DNA from: Hyphomicrobiales bacterium
GTDB taxonomy: Bacteria > Pseudomonadota > Alphaproteobacteria > Rhizobiales > Aestuariivirgaceae
Direction of reading: 5' to 3'
Assembly: GCA_027051195.1 (NCBI GenBank)
Contig: JALUAB010000099.1
Location: forward strand, 1 to 53,227
DNA length: 53,227 bases
The notes beneath the pieces are model-generated. The model saw nothing but the letters and a program-made list of their open reading frames with translations. It did no database searches and had not been told where the DNA came from. Each line of letters begins with the position of its first letter. Positions within the stretch are counted from its first letter, which is position 1. Below, piece after piece: positions 33,862-44,122 of the stretch. The translations under genes and the position numbers were made by a program.

Positions 33862-34019
33862 GATTCCCTCGCAGGCGCTGAAAACGAACCGCTGATTTCT
33901 TTCTAGCATCGCATGGGGCGGGAGCAAGGCATTTGCCAGCCGCGCCCCGGGCAGTCATGATTTTGTCATGGATGGCCCATAAATATCCCCCGGGCGGATG
34001 ACGGATGGAAAGGAAGACG

Positions 34020-35084
34020 ATGCCAGCTCTGCCGCGTCTGTATCATGCCGCGTTGGCGTTCATCGTGGGGCTTTTGGCGCTGCTGCCCTCGACACCGCCC
34101 GCCCGCGCCGCCAACATGCTTGCCGACACCGAGCTTTCCGGCAACGCCTATCGTTCCTTCGAGCTCATCGCCCCGGTGCCGGACTTCTGCCGCAAGGTGT
34201 GCGAGAAGGACACCGGCTGCCAGGCGTGGATGTTCTCCTGGCCCGGCAAGAAGGGCAAGCGCGCGAAATGCTTCCTCTTCGCCGGTGTGCAGGGCAAGCG
34301 CAAGGACACCTGCTGCATCTCCGGCTACAGGGGCAAGGGTTCCACCTTCGGAGAAACCATTGCCCGCTGGTTCGGTTCCGAAAAGGATACGAAGGAAAAC
34401 GCGGGCGGCGAACCCGCGCAATCGCGGACGCCACCCGAGCGGAAGACGGAACGGCCAGCGCCGCGCACGGCGCAGGCGCCGCGTCCGGCCCGGCCCACAC
34501 CAACGGAACCGCCCCTTGCGGATCCCGCCGAGGTGGAGCGCCAGCGCCAATTCTGCGCCCAATATGCCGATGCCGCGGTGCGCGCCAACAGGAAAGCGCG
34601 GGAGCTGGGCTGCGGTTTTCGTGGTGGCCTGTGGGGCGCGAGCCGTAACGGATATTTCAATTGGTGCATGAGGAACAACGAACAAAGGGCTGAAAGAAAC
34701 ACGCAACGTCGCCTTGCGGCATTGCAGGAATGCGAACGCCGCCTGGCCACCCGGCCTCCCGTGCCGGCAGCGCCCCCCGCGCCGGGCGTGGCGCCCATGC
34801 CGCCCGACCCCGGCCATCCGGACGCCCGCCCAGCGCCACCGGCTGTTCGCTACATCTGGCGCCAGGCACGTTATACCTACAGCTGGCTGAAGCGCTCCGG
34901 CCCCGGCCCGCGCACCACGCCGTGGCGACCGACGCTTTCCGGCAAGTGCGTGCTTGTGCGCGCCTGCGAATGTCCGCAAGGCAACACCTGTCGCGTTTAT
35001 GAGCCGGGCAGTATCGCCGTTTCATGGCCCAACGGCTGCGATGGTCCGCCCGCCTATTACGTATGCCGCGTGCGCCGGCGCTGA
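34020..35084 (+). CDS. Secreted Cys-rich protein with N-terminal PAN/apple-like domain
   Basis: Signal peptide ending in ARA; CxxxC...C.AW.F...C.L...CCISG pattern; Pro-rich linkers; two more Cys-rich modules. Confidence 0.7.
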   Translation: MPALPRLYHAALAFIVGLLALLPSTPPARAANMLADTELSGNAYRSFELIAPVPDFCRKVCEKDTGCQAWMFSWPGKKGKRAKCFLFAGVQGKRKDTCCISGYRGKGSTFGETIARWFGSEKDTKENAGGEPAQSRTPPERKTERPAPRTAQAPRPARPTPTEPPLADPAEVERQRQFCAQYADAAVRANRKARELGCGFRGGLWGASRNGYFNWCMRNNEQRAERNTQRRLAALQECERRLATRPPVPAAPPAPGVAPMPPDPGHPDARPAPPAVRYIWRQARYTYSWLKRSGPGPRTTPWRPTLSGKCVLVRACECPQGNTCRVYEPGSIAVSWPNGCDGPPAYYVCRVRRR

Positions 35085-36832: not shown

Positions 36833-38776
36833 TCATTCCGCCGGCGTCGGCTCGGCGGGCCGCTCTCCACCCTCTTCCGGCGGCGCTTCTCCTTCCGCCT
36901 CCGCCAGCCGCCGTTCGGCCTCCACCAGCCGCCGGCGCGCCTCGTCCGCCTCCTGCTGGCGACGCCACATGTCGGCGTAGGTACCGCCCCTTGCCAGCAG
37001 CTCCGCGTGCGTGCCGCGCTCGGATACGCGCCCGCCCTCCAGCACGATGATTTCGTCGGCGTCCACCACGGTGGAAAGCCGGTGCGCGATCACCAGCGTG
37101 GTGCGGTTTTCCGAAACCTTGTCAAGCGCGGCCTGAATTTGCCGCTCGGTCATGGTATCCAACGCCGACGTCGCCTCGTCCAGCACCAGAATCGGCGGAT
37201 TTTTCAGAATGGTCCGCGCGATGGCCACGCGCTGCTTCTCGCCACCGGAGAGTTTAAGCCCCCGCTCGCCCACCAGCGTGTCGTATCCCTTCGGCAGCGA
37301 CATGACGAAATCGTGGATCTGCGCCATCTTCGCCGCCTCCATCATCTCTTCGTCCGTGGCGTCCAGCCGCCCGTAGCGGATGTTGTAGCCAATGGTGTCG
37401 TTGAACAGCACCGTATCCTGCGGCACCATGCCCAGATGCCGGCGCAGGGACCGCTGCGTGACGGCGCGGATGTCCTGCCCGTCGATGAGAATGCGTCCCT
37501 CGTTCGGCTCGTAGAAGCGGAACAGCAGCCGCGAGATGGTGCTCTTGCCCGCGCCCGACGGACCGACGATGGCCAGCTTCTTCCCGGCCGGCACGGTGAA
37601 GCTCACCCCGTGCAAAATCTCACGGTCGGCATCGTAGCCGAAGCGCACGTTCTCGAAGCGCACCTCACCGTTCTTCACCACCAGCTCCCGCGCATCCGGC
37701 GCGTCGGTTATTTCCGGGGGCATGTCCAGCAGCAGGAACAGGTTCTCCAGATCGGTCAGCCCCTGCCTTATCTCGCGATACACGGAGCCGAGAAAGTTCA
37801 ACGGCTGGCCCAGCTGGATGAGCATGGCGTTTATCATGACGAAGTCGCCCACCGTCAGCCTGCCCGCCTGCACATCCATGGCCGCCAGCACCATCACCAC
37901 CGTCAGCCCGGCTGTGAAGATGGCCGCCTGCCCGGTATTCAGCAACGCCAGCGACTTGGAAGTGGTGATGGCCAGCTTCTCGTATTTCGCCATGGCGGCG
38001 TCGTGGCGCTTGGCCTCGTGCTCCTCGTTGGTGAAATACTTCACCGTCTCGTAGTTCAGCAGGCTGTCGATGGCATGGCCGGAGGCCTCGTTGTCCGCCG
38101 CGTTCATCGCCCGGCGCACCTGCGTGCGCCACTCGGTGACGCTCCAGGTGAACAGGACGTAGGCGGCTATGGTCACGGCCACCACCAGCGAATAGAGCGC
38201 CCCGAAACGGCCGAAGATGATGGCCAGCACCAGCGCCAGTTCGATGGCGGTGGGAATGGAGTTGAACAGCGAGAACCGCAGGATGACCTCGATGCCCTTG
38301 GTGCCGCGCTCCACGATGCGCGCCAGCGCCCCGGTGCGCCGCTGCAGGTGGTAGCGCAGCGACAGCGCATGCAGGTGGCGGAAGGCCTGATCGGCCAGCG
38401 CCCGCACCGCGCCCTGCCCCACCTCGGCGAAGAACCAGTCGCGCAACTGGGCGAAGGCCACCATCAGCACCCGCCCCACGCCATAGGCGATGACCAGGAA
38501 CACCGGCACGGCGGCGAACTGCCAGGCCGTGGCGTTGGGCAGACCGGAAAGGGCGTCCACCGCATACTTGTAGGCGAACGGCACCAGCACGGTGATGATC
38601 TTGGCCAGAATCAGCGAGGCCATGGCCAGCGCCACGCGGATGCGCTTGCCCGGCTGGTCTTTCGGCCACAGGTAGCCGAACAGCCGGCGCAAAGTCGCCC
38701 ACGCGCCCAGTGGCCGGGCCCGCTCGCCGAAGGCCTTCGCGTCTTCCGGCAGCGCCGATGTGGACAGTCTCGCCAT
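36833..38776 (-). CDS. ABCB/Atm1-type ABC exporter (fused permease and ATPase)
   Basis: DSLLNYETVKYF, PLNFLG, GPSGAGKST, LSGGEKQR, LDEATSALD. Confidence 0.93.
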   Translation of the reverse strand: MARLSTSALPEDAKAFGERARPLGAWATLRRLFGYLWPKDQPGKRIRVALAMASLILAKIITVLVPFAYKYAVDALSGLPNATAWQFAAVPVFLVIAYGVGRVLMVAFAQLRDWFFAEVGQGAVRALADQAFRHLHALSLRYHLQRRTGALARIVERGTKGIEVILRFSLFNSIPTAIELALVLAIIFGRFGALYSLVVAVTIAAYVLFTWSVTEWRTQVRRAMNAADNEASGHAIDSLLNYETVKYFTNEEHEAKRHDAAMAKYEKLAITTSKSLALLNTGQAAIFTAGLTVVMVLAAMDVQAGRLTVGDFVMINAMLIQLGQPLNFLGSVYREIRQGLTDLENLFLLLDMPPEITDAPDARELVVKNGEVRFENVRFGYDADREILHGVSFTVPAGKKLAIVGPSGAGKSTISRLLFRFYEPNEGRILIDGQDIRAVTQRSLRRHLGMVPQDTVLFNDTIGYNIRYGRLDATDEEMMEAAKMAQIHDFVMSLPKGYDTLVGERGLKLSGGEKQRVAIARTILKNPPILVLDEATSALDTMTERQIQAALDKVSENRTTLVIAHRLSTVVDADEIIVLEGGRVSERGTHAELLARGGTYADMWRRQQEADEARRRLVEAERRLAEAEGEAPPEEGGERPAEPTPAE

Positions 38777-39020
38777 GATGCACCGGAAATGCGCCGGCGC
38801 GCGCCTGGCGCGCCGGCGGTTCAGCACGTTCCTCCCGCTTTTAGGCCATTCGCGCCGCCGCTTCCAGCGCCCGCGCGGAATGCTACTGCCGCAAGGCGGG
38901 AATACATCCGTCACGGCCGCCGGGAGTTCATCCCTTGTGCGCGCCCGGCGGGCGGAGTAGCTGTTCCTGATAGTGGCCCGTCTCGCGGACCGCTCCACTC
39001 CTCCCGCACGGAGAATCCCC

Positions 39021-39920
39021 ATGTCCGCCGACAACTGCAACGACGATGCCCGCGGCATGCTTCTGGCGCTGGCCGCCTATGCCCTGTGGGGTGCCTTTCC
39101 GTTGTTCTTTCACCTGTTGCGGCAGGTGAACGCGGTGGAAATCGTGGCCCATCGCGCCATCTGGTCGCTGCCGCTCATCGGTCTGTTGCTGTGGCTGACT
39201 GGCCGCCACGGCGCCATCACGAAGGCCCTGGCGCCGATTCGGCGGTGGCGGCGCGCGCGCGTGCTCGTTGCCTCTGCTCTGCTGCTGCTCGTCAACTGGG
39301 GGTTCTTCGTCTGGGGCGTCACCAACGGACACACGCTGCAGGCGTCGCTCGGCTATTACATAAACCCGCTGGTAAACGTGCTGCTGGGCTTCCTGTTGCT
39401 GGGCGAGCGCTTCACCCGGGCGCAGACGCTGGCCATCCTGCTGGCCACAGCGGCGGTATTGTGGCTCACGCTGGCCGCCGGCGCGTTTCCGTGGCTGTCG
39501 CTGCTCCTGGCCTTTTCCTTCGCCGCCTATGGCTACCTGCGCAAGACCATGCCCTCGGATTCCCTGCAGGGCCTGTTCGTGGAAACGCTTTTCATGCTGC
39601 CTCCCGCCCTGTTTGCCCTGTGGCTGCTGCCACGCTTCGGCGTGACGCTTTCCTTCCCCGCCTCGCCGTGGCTTGCCTTCCTGCTGGCGCTTTCCGGACC
39701 ACTCAGCGCCCTCGCGCTGTTGCTGTTCGCCGCCGGCGCCCGGCGCATCCGCCTCTCCACCCTGGGGCTGATGCAATACATCACGCCGACGATGCATTTC
39801 CTCACCGCCGTGCACGTCTTCGGCGAACCGTTCGACTCCCGCCACCTTTTCGCCTTCGCGCTCATCTGGCTGGCGCTCTTCATCTACGGTCGCGAGAGCT
39901 GGCGCCTCTCCCGCGCCTGA
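39021..39920 (+). CDS. rarD: RarD family EamA transporter
   Basis: LWG, EIVAHRAIWS, ASLGYYINPL, YGYLRK, LGLMQYITP. Confidence 0.92.
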   Translation: MSADNCNDDARGMLLALAAYALWGAFPLFFHLLRQVNAVEIVAHRAIWSLPLIGLLLWLTGRHGAITKALAPIRRWRRARVLVASALLLLVNWGFFVWGVTNGHTLQASLGYYINPLVNVLLGFLLLGERFTRAQTLAILLATAAVLWLTLAAGAFPWLSLLLAFSFAAYGYLRKTMPSDSLQGLFVETLFMLPPALFALWLLPRFGVTLSFPASPWLAFLLALSGPLSALALLLFAAGARRIRLSTLGLMQYITPTMHFLTAVHVFGEPFDSRHLFAFALIWLALFIYGRESWRLSRA

Positions 39921-39995: not shown

Positions 39996-40205
39996 ATGAC
40001 GGTCGCCAAGGTCATCGAGATATTCTCCTCATCCCCGGAGAGTATCGAGGACGCCGTCAACCGCGGCATCGAGCGCGTGGAGAAAACGCTGGACGAGGTG
40101 AAGGGCGTGTGGATCAAGAGCATCAAGTGCGACGTGGAAAACGGCAGGGTTTCGCGCTGGCGCGTGGACATGAAGGTCACCTTCGTGCTGAAGGACACCT
40201 CGTGA
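39996..40205 (+). CDS. Dodecin family protein
   Basis: 69 aa, VAKVIEI..SS..SIEDAV..GI, GVWIK, WRVDMKVTF; GGGAG RBS. Confidence 0.88.
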   Translation: MTVAKVIEIFSSSPESIEDAVNRGIERVEKTLDEVKGVWIKSIKCDVENGRVSRWRVDMKVTFVLKDTS

Positions 40206-40265
40206 AAACAGCAAATGGCACCGCGCGGCCTTTCCGCCCGTGCGGTGCCGGGCTATAATGCCCGC

Positions 40266-41018
40266 ATGACTGCCGAAGCCGCCGTTCAACAGGATCTGAC
40301 CATCGACACGGCTGCGCTGCTGGAAAACATCCCGCGCGCCCGGCTGGAGCGCATGCACGCCGCTGGCATGACCATTCTGGAGAGCTACCGCGCGCTGGAA
40401 AAGGCCGGGCGCAACGTCGTAGGCCAGTGCCTGGCGCACCAGGGAACCTTCTACGAGCTGGAGCACTACCCTCGCGGCGACGTGTTCGACGAAGAGTTCG
40501 GCGCCCAATACTATTACCATGCCCACCGCCCGGAAAGCGGCGAACACGGGCATTTCCACTGCTTTCTCCGCCGCGAGGGCATGCCCGTGGGCGCCCACCC
40601 GGTGAAAATGCCACCCGACACGCCCCGCCCCGTCGGCGAGGATGCCATCTGTCACCTCATCGCCATTTCCATGGATCCCATGGGCTACCCCACCCACCTG
40701 TTCACCACCAACCGCTGGGTCACCAACGAGACTTTCTACCCCGCGGATCAGACACTCGAGATGGTCGATCGCTTCCGGGTGGATCATGCCTGGCCGTGCC
40801 TGGCCACCAACAACTGGATCACCGCCATGCTGCAACTGTTCTGGCCGCAGATCCGCCTGCTGCTGAACGAGCGCGACCGCGTGATCGCCGACTGGGCGCG
40901 CCGCCACCCGGACGTGAACGTCTATGAAGACCGCGAGCTGGAGATCACCTCCATCATGCCCATCGACGTGGACGATCAGATCTCACGGGTGGAACGGGCG
41001 CTCACGGCCGTTCGCTGA
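40266..41018 (+). CDS. DUF6969-like protein with His-rich motifs
   Basis: HYPxxDV, QYYYHAH, EHGHFHCF, CHLIAISMD, FTTNRWVT motifs, recalled as DUF6969 (not searched). Confidence 0.7.
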   Translation: MTAEAAVQQDLTIDTAALLENIPRARLERMHAAGMTILESYRALEKAGRNVVGQCLAHQGTFYELEHYPRGDVFDEEFGAQYYYHAHRPESGEHGHFHCFLRREGMPVGAHPVKMPPDTPRPVGEDAICHLIAISMDPMGYPTHLFTTNRWVTNETFYPADQTLEMVDRFRVDHAWPCLATNNWITAMLQLFWPQIRLLLNERDRVIADWARRHPDVNVYEDRELEITSIMPIDVDDQISRVERALTAVR

Positions 41019-41154
41019 CCGTCCCCTTCGCTCTCACCCCCTTGTGATGCCTCGTGAAAAAGGTGTGAAGCCGCTAACCCGCGCGCGCTGGTAGGGTCGA
41101 ACATCGGCTGGCATTTGCCGGAGCCGGAATTCGAACCTGCAAGGAGGGAAGGAC

Positions 41155-42075
41155 ATGGATCACCTCGCGCGCAATCTCAGGACGGCGGCCCTGCCTCTGG
41201 CGCTTGGCGCCGGCCTGCTTGGCGCCGGCATGGCGGCACCGGCGCCGGCCGCGCCCTGCGCTCCCCGCATGAACGATCGCAAGGCCCCCTGCAATCCTTG
41301 CGCTGCGCATCCGAAGAACAGGATGCCCAGGTCCGCCAACCCCTGCGCGGCCAAAAATCCATGCGCCGCGAAGAAGCCCGCCAACCCCTGCAACCCGTGC
41401 GGCGCCGGCAAGATGATGAATCCATGCGCAGCCGGAAATCCGTGCGCGGCGCACGCGAGGGATTACATGATGCGCAAGGCCAACCCCTGCGCGGCCAAAA
41501 ATCCATGCGCCGCGAAGAAACCCGCCAACCCCTGCAACCCGTGCGGCGCCGAGAAGAAACCCATGAAGGACAGCATGAAGATGGGCCCGGAACGTCTGAA
41601 CGAGGCTTTCGCCGCCATCCTGCCTGCACTGAGGAAAACCTACCGCGGCGGCGGGCATTTCATCGCCGACGGCCGCTGGGCGGACTGGAAGAACTTCGCC
41701 ACAAGTCCCTACAGCGGCGAAACGCACGGCGGGCGCTATCTCGTGAATTACGCCAATCCGGTGGCGGCGAAGGTCTATGGCCGCTACGAGCAGCTGCGCC
41801 GCATGCCGGCTGGCGGCATCATCGCCAAGCCCTCCTTCACGCTTGAAGGCCGCAAGCCGAAGCCCGGCCCGCTGTTTGTGATGGAAAAGATGACGAAAGG
41901 CTGGAACAAGGCCACAGGAGACTGGCGCTACGCCATGATCCTGCCGGGCGGGAAGACCTACGGCGTAACGAAAGGCCCGAACGGCGACAAGGTAGCCTTT
42001 TGCAATGACTGTCACGCAACCGCGCAGGAAACCGACGCCCTTATGTTCTTGCCCGAGAAAGTGCGGGTGAACTGA
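41155..42075 (+). CDS. Secreted NPC-repeat protein fused to a cytochrome P460-like c-type cytochrome domain
   Basis: Signal peptide; 13 Pro-Cys motifs; C-terminal YANPVA, PxGxIIAK, VMEK, GDWRYA and CNDCH heme motif. Confidence 0.8.
   Translation: MDHLARNLRTAALPLALGAGLLGAGMAAPAPAAPCAPRMNDRKAPCNPCAAHPKNRMPRSANPCAAKNPCAAKKPANPCNPCGAGKMMNPCAAGNPCAAHARDYMMRKANPCAAKNPCAAKKPANPCNPCGAEKKPMKDSMKMGPERLNEAFAAILPALRKTYRGGGHFIADGRWADWKNFATSPYSGETHGGRYLVNYANPVAAKVYGRYEQLRRMPAGGIIAKPSFTLEGRKPKPGPLFVMEKMTKGWNKATGDWRYAMILPGGKTYGVTKGPNGDKVAFCNDCHATAQETDALMFLPEKVRVN
41335..41551 (+). repeat. Intragenic 73-bp direct repeat (144-bp offset)
   Basis: 41335-41407 vs 41479-41551, one synonymous mismatch, encodes ANPCAAKNPCAAKKPANPCNPCGA. 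Confidence 0.9.
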
Positions 42076-42099: not shown

Positions 42100-42132
42100 G
42101 GGGCGGAGCAAGGCGCTCCGTCCCCCTTCTTG
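42100..42132 (+). terminator. Putative intrinsic terminator between convergent genes
   Basis: GGGGCGGAGC-AAGGC-GCTCCGTCCC hairpin followed by CTTCTT. Confidence 0.5.
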
Positions 42133-42151: not shown

Positions 42152-42388
42152 TCAGCCCTGCAGCCAGGCGCGCACCTGCTCCGGTGTCGGCACGCTCCCC
42201 ACGTGCACGATCTCGCCATTGACCGCCACGCCCGGCGTGGACATGATACCGGCAGCCATGATCTCGGCCGTGTCGGTCACCTCTTTCACCTCCACCGGCA
42301 CGCCCATCTGCTCGGCGATCTGCCGGATCATGTCCTTTGTGTTCTGGCAGTTCTTGCAACCGGAACCGTAAACGGTGAACTCCTTCAT
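42152..42388 (-). CDS. Small thioredoxin-family redox-active disulfide protein (MTH895/ArsE-like)
   Basis: GSGCKNC, GIMSTPGV, G.VP; ATG at 42388 with AGGAG RBS. Confidence 0.9.
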   Translation of the reverse strand: MKEFTVYGSGCKNCQNTKDMIRQIAEQMGVPVEVKEVTDTAEIMAAGIMSTPGVAVNGEIVHVGSVPTPEQVRAWLQG

Positions 42389-42505
42389 GCTCCTTCTCCT
42401 TGTTGGCAGGGATGCGTTACACTTGGTTATCGTATGCATGGAAGAACGCCACGCCTTCGGCACGCTCTCTACGTCTGCAAAAGTCAAACACGCGACTGCG
42501 TGCTA

Positions 42506-42725
42506 GGCTCAGGACCCATAAAGGGCGTGGATGCCAGCGGCATTTTCGCGAAATATCGCTGGCTTTTCGCCCGCAGGGAATAGCCGAAGCTATTTCCAAG
42601 GGTGAAAAGCCAGCGAGATGAAGCGAAAATGTCGCCCGAAGGGTCTGGCGCAAAATCTCGATAATCCATTGCTAATTGCCGATTTTGCGCCAGACTGGCG
42701 CCGCGCAATTTATGGGTCCTGAGCC
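42506..42725. mobile_element. 220-bp MITE, copy 2
   Basis: Identical to 29470-29689 by eye; same TIRs; inserted in the CTAG that forms the permease stop codon. Confidence 0.92.
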
Positions 42726-43690
42726 TAGGCGAACAGCGCGTTGAACAGGTAGCCCACGACGATGAACGCCACGAACAGGATGCCGGCGAAGGTGGCGATC
42801 AGCTGGGGTTTCAGGACCTTGCGCAGGATGATCATCTCGGGCAGCGAGATGGCGGCCACGGACATCATGAGCGTCAGCACCGTGCCCACCGGCACGCCCT
42901 TGGCAAGCAGGCTCTCCACCACCGGGATGACGCCCGACGCGTTGGAATAAAGCGGAATGCCGATGAGTGCCGCCAGCGGCACGGCCAGGAAGTTGTCCGC
43001 CGCCGTCTGCTTCGCCAGCCACTCCGCCGGCACATACCCATGGAGAATGGCGCCTACCGCAATGCCAATGAACACATATTTCCAGATGCGCCCGACGATT
43101 TCGCGCACCTCGCGCTTCGCGAACGCGAGGCGGCCCTTCCACGAGGTGTCCGCCTGCGGCACCGCCACCTTGCCCATGCGGATCTGCCACACGTAGTCCT
43201 CCACCCACTTCTCCAGTTTCAGGACCTCGATGAGCAGGCCACCTATGATGCCCACGGTCATGCCGGCGATCACGTAAAGCGCCGCCACCTTCCACCCCAG
43301 GACGGCCGCCAGCAGAACCACCGCCACCTCGTTGATCATCGGCGAGGCGATGAGAAAGGCCATGGTCACGCCCAGCGGAATGCCGGCCTCGAGAAAGCCG
43401 ATGAACAGAGGCACCGACGAGCACGAGCAGAAGGGCGTGACCGCGCCCAGCGTCACTGCCAGCGGATAGGAGACAAATCGTGGCTTGCCGGCCACCAGCT
43501 GGCGCACCTTTTCCGGCGCGATCATGGCGCGCAGGAAGCCCATGGCGAAGACGATGACGACGAGTAGCGTGAAGATCTTGGTGGTGTCCTCGATGAAGAA
43601 ATGCACCGCTTCGCCGAAGCGCGAGCCGGGCTGAAGCCCCAGCCACTGCCATGCGATGGTATCGGCCAGCCACGTGAAAATGGCGAACAT
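42725..43690 (-). CDS. ArsP/DUF318 family permease
   Basis: TPFCSCSSVPLF, FLIASP, GIPLY, SLPE; located between ArsR and thioredoxin genes. Confidence 0.88.
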   Translation of the reverse strand: MFAIFTWLADTIAWQWLGLQPGSRFGEAVHFFIEDTTKIFTLLVVIVFAMGFLRAMIAPEKVRQLVAGKPRFVSYPLAVTLGAVTPFCSCSSVPLFIGFLEAGIPLGVTMAFLIASPMINEVAVVLLAAVLGWKVAALYVIAGMTVGIIGGLLIEVLKLEKWVEDYVWQIRMGKVAVPQADTSWKGRLAFAKREVREIVGRIWKYVFIGIAVGAILHGYVPAEWLAKQTAADNFLAVPLAALIGIPLYSNASGVIPVVESLLAKGVPVGTVLTLMMSVAAISLPEMIILRKVLKPQLIATFAGILFVAFIVVGYLFNALFA

Positions 43691-43762
43691 GATCTCGCTC
43701 CCTGCCTTTGAGGTTGGGGAATTGTCCTCGTGCCCGGTCGGATGATCGTGGCGCCGGGAAAA

Positions 43763-44122
43763 TCAGGAGGCGCGCCGCTCCGGCGGCCGGCTCTCCTCCT
43801 CCATGGTGGAAAGCCGTGCCGCGTCATCGGCGTAGGGCGCCCTGTCCCGCAGGCCCTCCAGCGTCGTGCGCAATACCGCCGCCGCCCAGTCCGGCAGCGT
43901 CGGGTTCAGCGAATAGTGCACCCACAGGCCCTGCTTGCGCGAGGCCACCAGCCCGCCCTTGCGCAACGCCGCCAGATGCGAGGAAACGCGCGGCTGCACC
44001 ATGTCCAGAGCGTGCACCAGCTCACACACGCACAGCTCGCCGTGCGCTGCCAAAAGCATCAGGATGCGCCGCCGCGTCGGTTCCGCCAGCGCGGAAAACA
44101 GCGCCTGTTCCACTGTTTCCAT
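43763..44122 (-). CDS. arsR: ArsR/SmtB family metalloregulator
   Basis: ALAEPTRRRIL, ELCVCEL metalloid-binding motif, HTH, GLWVHY. Confidence 0.88.
   Translation of the reverse strand: METVEQALFSALAEPTRRRILMLLAAHGELCVCELVHALDMVQPRVSSHLAALRKGGLVASRKQGLWVHYSLNPTLPDWAAAVLRTTLEGLRDRAPYADDAARLSTMEEESRPPERRAS

Follow-up and report, generated by a model that had tools for sequence, protein, structure and literature searches.

An exported Pro-Cys repeat protein and a DUF6969 protein form a widespread proteobacterial gene pair, with a possible maturase role for DUF6969

What might a His-rich protein without a signal peptide do beside an exported protein in which every cysteine of a long repeat follows a proline? 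The question is raised by two neighbouring genes, here called gene A and gene B, in a 53,227-nt stretch of DNA from a member of the Hyphomicrobiales (the window). Gene A (40266..41018, + strand, 250 aa; defined by Pfam match, alignment and structural model) had been described as DUF6969-like in an earlier note on this DNA, and an HMM search bore this out, with a match to Pfam DUF6969 (PF22308) that scores 274 bits (cut-off 27) and spans model positions 2-201 of 201. A search of gene A against NCBIfam matched no model. The note had also held that the partner of gene B is not an MNIO enzyme, in agreement with which PF05114 (MNIO) has no match in gene A and was found in none of 14 genomes (0/14), namely the genome that harbours the window (G000, 96% complete) and 13 relatives of the same genus, in a search whose positive control was detected. 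Gene A is single-copy in its own genome, and an N-terminal hydrophobic stretch or signal peptide is absent from the sequence of its product.

Clustered at 90% identity, the DUF6969 family has 2119 sequences or more (of 2828 candidates scored), and at 50% identity 1263 clusters (E<=0.001). The protein carries YHAH at residues 84-87, HGHFH at 94-98, His-Cys at 98-99 and Cys-His at 129-130. Among 150 representatives at 50% identity, conservation reaches 99% at each of H85, H87, H96, H98 and H130, which are accompanied by D75 (97%), E93 (94%), N149 (97%), W151 (99%), R203 (96%) and H67 (88%). The cysteines are variable in the same set, Cys99 being kept in 10% and Cys129 falling outside the top three residues, so that of the HxH, HxHxH and CH motifs to which attention had been drawn the histidines hold and the cysteines of the 'CH' motifs do not. 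The invariant His/Asp/Glu set of the family is of a pattern typical of a metal site, and it is from this residue pattern alone that we infer such a site in gene A.

The structural model of gene A is confident (pLDDT 94, pTM 0.92) and consists of a five-to-six-strand sheet with helices, in which the four conserved His of the two motifs occupy a strand hairpin, with H130 placed on the strand that follows. A Foldseek search with this model gave no match at E<=0.001, profile searches of solved structures found nothing, and an atlas search returned DUF6969 clusters only. Across 48,161 chains, VIA-align reached a best Z of 3.7 (rmsd 3.7, 80 aligned), or 3.2 on a second look, and an unmatched fold is not the same as a proven new one. 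A HIT-like reading of HGHFH was without support in the fold and profile searches. Taken together with the residue pattern, gene A is likely to be a metalloenzyme of unmatched fold.

Several variant forms of the family deserve mention. An N-terminal hydrophobic segment is present in 22 of 151 DUF6969 representatives (e.g. P0147, P0155 and P0157), which may constitute a membrane-anchored subfamily. Among longer forms, 13 are recorded as tandem duplications (P0123-P0135, P0138) of about 480 aa; these keep the His set in both halves, which hints at a DUF6969 dimer. Two further proteins (P0171 and P0235) join DUF6969 to a coiled coil, a membrane segment and an SH3 domain, and several of the His are gone in P0235. 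A fusion of DUF6969 to a Cys repeat was not seen among the longer forms searched.

The exported product of gene B (41155..42075, + strand, 306 aa) joins an (X-Pro-Cys)13 repeat to a domain of the cytochrome P460 fold. A Sec signal peptide, judged by eye, is predicted at about residues 1-32 (41155..41250, +), and it is followed in the sequence by the Cys-repeat region (41251..41547, +), which contains an exact 24-residue internal duplication. Re-reading the sequence confirmed what had been noted of this protein, which lies directly 3' of gene A: residues 35-130 hold 13 Cys, each preceded by Pro, in 11 NPC and two APC motifs. The C-terminal domain (41590..42072, +; Lys225, Glu244 and CxxCH at 283-287) was assigned to the cytochrome P460/c'-beta fold by Pfam, Foldseek and alignment. 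Residues 178-296 match Cytochrome_P460 (PF16694) with 34.3 bits, no NCBIfam family was found for gene B, and Foldseek places the haem domain with 6hiu at E 2e-8, with 17 matches at E<=0.001 of which all those listed are members of the P460/c'-beta superfamily. Lys225 is invariant in 22/22 aligned haem domains; its counterparts in the alignment are the cross-link Lys of the VTVK motif in 2je2 and 8gar (N. europaea P460) and Phe61 of the c'-beta protein 7ead, at the P460/c'-beta cross-link position covered by a residue table in PMC11928373. The invariant Glu244 aligns with the Glu of GLEAS (the distal carboxylate), in an alignment that runs across gaps and has an E of about 0.01. By its modelled fold, then, gene B belongs to the P460/c'-beta superfamily, with the cross-link Lys kept. 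Among its 120 best homologues 112 have the Lys motif and 114 have at least three N/D-P-C motifs, the latter count being inflated by the repeat that the gene B query itself includes.

The two genes lie on the same strand, 136 bp apart, and gene B is preceded in the sequence by a strong purine-rich ribosome-binding site (41142..41154, +). A TATAAT hexamer (40254..40259, +), likely the -10 box of a leaderless transcript, stands 6 nt 5' of the gene A ATG; a promoter scan did not call it, and a TAnnnT hexamer 6-7 nt before the DUF6969 ATG occurs in 7 of 18 loci of relatives, this locus included. Since the hexamer keeps this distance from the start both here and in relatives, it suggests that gene A has its own leaderless promoter. 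A stem-loop 3' of gene B (42100..42124, +) is a possible terminator, though the count of stem-loops is not above chance. Within its own genome gene B is single-copy, and an ORF with at least two NPC was found in 1 of 158 12-kb genome segments, which is this locus, so that the repeat is no chance feature of the genome.

The genes on either side appear to be unrelated to the pair. An operon for ArsR, an ArsP-type permease and an ArsE-type thioredoxin (42152-44119, -) converges on gene B, directly after rpoC, and is ordinary in its make-up; upstream lie genes for a dodecin-like protein (39996-40205, +), RarD (38988-39920, +) and an Atm1-type ABC exporter (36833-38779, -). The earlier note had taken the ArsR operon and Atm1 to fit a metal-stress role without proving it, a point that does not survive comparison with 98 homologous loci (18 of them covering only +/-1.5 kb), among which ArsR and ArsP recur at none (0/98) and Atm1 is represented just by generic ABC matches of 29-35%. 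The ArsE-type protein, dodecin and RarD are found at this locus only, and we do not count any of these genes as parts of the system. Farther off, the window also encodes an exported protein of 359 aa (34005-35084, +) that combines PAN_4 with other Cys-rich modules.

The note had named a lack of co-occurrence of DUF6969 and NPC-repeat proteins across genomes among the grounds for refuting its proposal, and co-occurrence was found in every set of loci and genomes that we compared. An ORF with at least two NPC is present in 54/80 GTDB DUF6969 loci (the best 80 of 365), where many of the misses are short contigs, and one with at least three N/D-P-C in 52/80 metagenome loci (the best 80 of 594), or in 25 of the 32 among these with at least 1.5 kb of flank on both sides; both sets are the best-scoring ones, and Gallionellaceae and Paracoccaceae feature heavily in them. 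We quote these strict counts because a generic filter for an exported Cys-rich ORF, which retrieved 47/58 and 30/35 loci, also accepted 22/141 control windows. A check free of this bias gave the same picture: among 401 genomes sampled across the phylum, 14 carry DUF6969, and an exported Cys-repeat ORF lies within about 2 kb of it in 11 of these and an NPC gene elsewhere in two more (13/14 in total), the remaining genome (G272) showing no Cys-repeat partner in 18 kb. Within 41 relatives of the source genome an NPC gene accompanies DUF6969 in 15 of 18 positive genomes and occurs in 1 of 23 negative ones (G001, an assembly of 530 contigs), and by genus the figures are 5/7 against 0/21; Fisher tests on these relatives overstate the association, as kin are not independent.

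Co-occurrence extends beyond physical linkage. The two genes are adjacent in six and unlinked in five of the 11 genus members that have both, and relatives retain them jointly even when they are unlinked. Adjacency, often with overlap or less than 100 bp between the genes, also recurs on deep branches with differing motifs and surroundings, as judged from a quick DUF6969 tree that was used only to see this spread. The partner may be a free peptide, a fusion to a P460-fold domain (a domain present in 32/160 loci) or a fusion to a SoxA/TsdA-like haem domain (42/160 loci), and the repeat motif varies from NPC to APC, KPC, HPC, GCC, KCA and CKG on deep branches. Because both the form of the partner and the motif vary, it is the repeat rather than the haem that DUF6969 tracks. 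A compact version of the pair is found on pSymA of S. meliloti 1021 (L309:5577-6528), where a 124-aa exported Ala-Pro-Cys repeat ORF overlaps the start of the DUF6969 gene. We conclude that DUF6969 and an exported Cys repeat form a real and widespread gene pair across Proteobacteria.

Each member of the pair can nevertheless occur by itself. No partner of DUF6969 is visible in G002, G014, G019, G272 and the Azospirillum lipoferum locus, and at three loci (L306, L073 and L074) DUF6969 follows Mla-type ABC genes in a setting without a Cys peptide. Conversely, a triple-NPC pattern occurs in 52 of the 401 genomes, of which eight have DUF6969, 36 belong to a distant family (f52), three are G041, G215 and G376, and five look spurious by their matched letters; of the 39 genomes that lack DUF6969 and look real, 16 had their ORFs inspected. 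NPC arrays are thus present in 36 of the 64 f52 genomes of the phylum sample and DUF6969 in none. A 104-row DUF6969 profile run against 81 f52 genomes yielded no more than three matches, all short and weak and two of them with stops, where divergent controls scored 1e-45 or better, and MNIO was found in 3/81. Arrays without DUF6969 are also present in G041, G215, G376 and G001. Where examined in f52, G215 and G041 (L278-L289), such arrays either stand alone or are joined to a monohaem domain of SoxA/TsdA-like type; a pentahaem cytochrome is encoded in 7/14 of such array regions, and some regions carry genes for ArsM/ArsS-like proteins or P-type ATPases. These arrays possibly represent a separate, undescribed module. 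Bufferin precursors are rarely without MNIO, in 21/4072 genomes according to PMC12452194. The f52 arrays weaken a strict maturase reading; since arrays can persist without DUF6969, modification by it would probably be an upgrade and not a requirement.

A maturase is the simplest reading of the pair because DUF6969 is a cytoplasmic, enzyme-like His/Asp/Glu protein and the one partner constantly associated with it is a Cys-repeat chain, exported, of varying motif and usually encoded next to it. The explanation that we rank first, and whose chances we put at about even, is that DUF6969 is a cytoplasmic, metal-dependent maturase of the exported Pro-Cys repeat, in a bufferin-like system with a non-MNIO enzyme. 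In such a system H85, H87, H96, H98 and H130, with D75/E93, would serve as ligands to one metal or several, probably Fe, and the substrate would be the nascent repeat precursor, its cysteines being modified before export. The modification would be analogous to that of bufferins by MNIO and would be carried out by an unrelated fold; oxidative Cys heterocyclisation is the chemistry that this analogy, rather than a result, would suggest. The product would leave through Sec to serve as a multivalent periplasmic sink that takes up thiol-reactive species, such as soft metals (Cu+, As(III)) or reactive sulfur, with the fused haem domain as an exchangeable electron sink or recycler. Our broader proposal, which we advance tentatively and hold a little short of even, is that DUF6969 founds a new metalloenzyme fold that modifies X-Pro-Cys and related exported repeats, and so provides a second, MNIO-independent route to bufferin-like metal or sulfur sinks, from the iron-oxidising Gallionellaceae to Sinorhizobium meliloti; at the locus described here this would give a haem enzyme of P460 type an arm bearing up to 13 modified Cys.

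The neighbours of the pair leave room for a different chemistry. Across 160 loci, DUF302 recurs at 28, YeeE at 25, a cupredoxin-like exported protein at 24, CcdA and thioredoxin at 23 each, FGE-like proteins at 19, DUF3179 at 15, CMD at 12 and MsrB at 6, and ECF sigma factors recur as well. An ECF sigma factor with NrsF or zf-HC2 flanks many DUF6969 loci, NrsF being counted at 12 (given as 12/80, and also listed as 12 in the tally of 160). These recurring neighbours, among them YeeE, CcdA/thioredoxin, ECF/NrsF, FGE-like and cupredoxin-like genes, speak for sulfur and thiol-oxidant stress no less often than for metals, so that a sulfur or oxidant role is as good a fit as a metal one: the YeeE, rhodanese and SoxA-like domains point to sulfur, and CcdA and thioredoxin suggest that free thiols matter. 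Some neighbours are of interest in their own right. The exported 158-aa protein exemplified by L209:7895-8374 has no Pfam match, is present in 24/80 metagenome loci (the best 80 of 594) and gave an atlas lead, to be read as a lead only, to cupredoxin/sulfocyanin at 0.89. A small Cys-rich ORF with a GDCCVYC stretch (L010:6711-6932), which we take to be of the family named GDCCVxC, directly follows DUF6969 in 14/80 GTDB loci (the best 80 of 365) and likewise has no Pfam match. On a B. glumae plasmid (L308:1116-9190), genes for thioredoxin, CcdA, an ECF sigma factor, zf-HC2, an MFS protein, a Lys-Cys repeat peptide and DUF6969 are followed by arsenosugar-type glycosyltransferases.

The main rival builds on these neighbours and holds that the repeats are plain thiols, which serve as a periplasmic sulfur carrier or as a sacrificial redox buffer (for persulfide, polysulfide or HOCl), are loaded or oxidised by the fused haem and are re-reduced by CcdA/thioredoxin, DUF6969 being a cytoplasmic metalloenzyme that acts on a small sulfur compound of the same pathway and leaves the peptide untouched. 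YeeE, the SoxA/TsdA-like haem fusions, CcdA with thioredoxin, FGE-like proteins and MsrB, in the numbers given above, all suit this explanation, as do the rows of rhodanese, YeeE, peptide and DUF6969 genes in G303, Ciceribacter and S. meliloti RCAM1750, the use of arrays in f52 without DUF6969 or MNIO, and the fact that CNPC is itself a CxxC motif in sequence. A precedent is the control by SigF/NrsF of the sacrificial peptide MrpX, an oxidant sink, as set out in PMC4436054. Also in keeping with this rival, the genome that harbours the window encodes SoxY, on another contig, and two YeeE; NrsF was not found in it, and at the locus itself no Pfam match indicates a SoxY/SoxZ-type carrier or sox genes. 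SoxY, however, does not track DUF6969 by genus (5/7 against 11/21, with a SoxY profile that is not discriminating), and none of the transporter or sulfur genes recurs throughout, YeeE being missing at most loci including this one, whereas the peptide is constant; S. meliloti 1021, moreover, has peptide and DUF6969 without an adjoining YeeE or rhodanese. On balance we regard plain thiols with an untouched peptide as unlikely, at a little over one chance in four.

Maturation by DUF6969 also has to be weighed against a non-catalytic function, in which DUF6969 would be a chaperone that holds the Cys-rich precursor and, until it is exported, prevents its oxidation or the binding of wrong metal, or else a metal loader. 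The co-occurrence data serve this explanation equally well, the dispensability of DUF6969 in f52 fits an accessory role, and a His-rich surface could pass on metal. Sec exports unfolded, metal-free chains, which makes loading of the repeat with metal in the cytoplasm unlikely, and the Asp, Glu, Asn, Trp and Arg that are conserved along with the His set look more like an active site; we consider a chaperone or loader improbable. That the two genes merely share a stress regulon and travel jointly, with no direct or pathway link, is most improbable of all, for although they are unlinked in five of the 11 genus members noted above, gene A apparently has its own promoter and partnerless copies exist on both sides, adjacency recurs on deep branches despite differing repeat motifs and surrounding genes.

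These data give the DUF6969 family, which has no solved relative, a concrete candidate substrate. If DUF6969 modifies the repeats, it would represent a new class of RiPP enzyme that genome mining based on MNIO would miss, and a new bacterial means of periplasmic buffering against metals or reactive sulfur; even without modification, the exported NPC arrays, fused to two unrelated haem domains, are an undescribed and widespread family. The small copy of the pair on pSymA of S. meliloti 1021 offers a tractable model. A literature search, with subscription papers and bioRxiv supplements outside its scope, returned nothing on DUF6969 and, among the papers listed and judged by title or opening of the abstract, nothing on the repeat family, and the supplements of PMC12452194 gave no match for NPC, DUF6969 or P460. 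What is new here comprises the two-way genome profile, the absence of MNIO, the lineage with arrays and no enzyme, the P460 Lys and the S. meliloti 1021 copy.

Among known systems, the closest in layout are the bufferin/oxazolin clusters, which comprise BufA, MNIO (PF05114), DUF2063 and DoxX and are controlled by SigF/NrsF. As in these clusters, a Cys-repeat precursor with a signal peptide is encoded beside a cytoplasmic His-rich protein, and gene B shows the corresponding precursor traits of a signal peptide, judged by eye, and a repeated Cys motif. Also shared are an ECF sigma factor with NrsF near part of the loci, such sigma factors with NrsF being typical of bufferin clusters according to PMC12452194 and PMC11626156, and the fusion of some precursors to other domains. 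Unlike those clusters, the DUF6969 system is without MNIO and DoxX, its candidate enzyme has an unmatched and apparently different fold, and it features an X-Pro-Cys motif, fusions to c-type haem domains and many arrays without the enzyme. A DUF2063/RRE-like partner was absent from the recurring neighbour families scanned, and when models of BufA and oxazolin precursors were run against 10 partner proteins only one (L079) touched BufA2, with 19 bits against a cut-off of 60. The gene pair has a layout like that of a bufferin cluster without being such a cluster, as it matches neither the MNIO nor the precursor models. The MrpX-YedYZ system of Azospira suillum, which is under SigF/NrsF control, is alike in its low-complexity exported peptide rich in sulfur amino acids, its ECF/NrsF control and the reductive repair genes nearby, and differs in that the repeats here are of Cys and not Met, YedY is lacking and a dedicated cytoplasmic His protein is present. 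With SoxXA/SoxYZ and YeeE (SoxT)-rhodanese modules the system shares, at homologous loci, the fusion of the repeat to a SoxA/TsdA-like haem domain together with YeeE and rhodanese, in contrast to which it has no SoxY/Z fold, and at this locus the domain is of the P460 fold and sulfur genes do not adjoin. Finally, gene B is like the members of the cytochrome P460/c'-beta superfamily (6hiu, 2je2, 7ead and 7s5o) in its fold, in the CxxCH near its C-terminus and in the Lys at the cross-link position, with a Glu that tentatively aligns with the distal carboxylate, and it is set apart from them by an identity of only 16-24% and by the long Cys-repeat arm in front of the haem domain.
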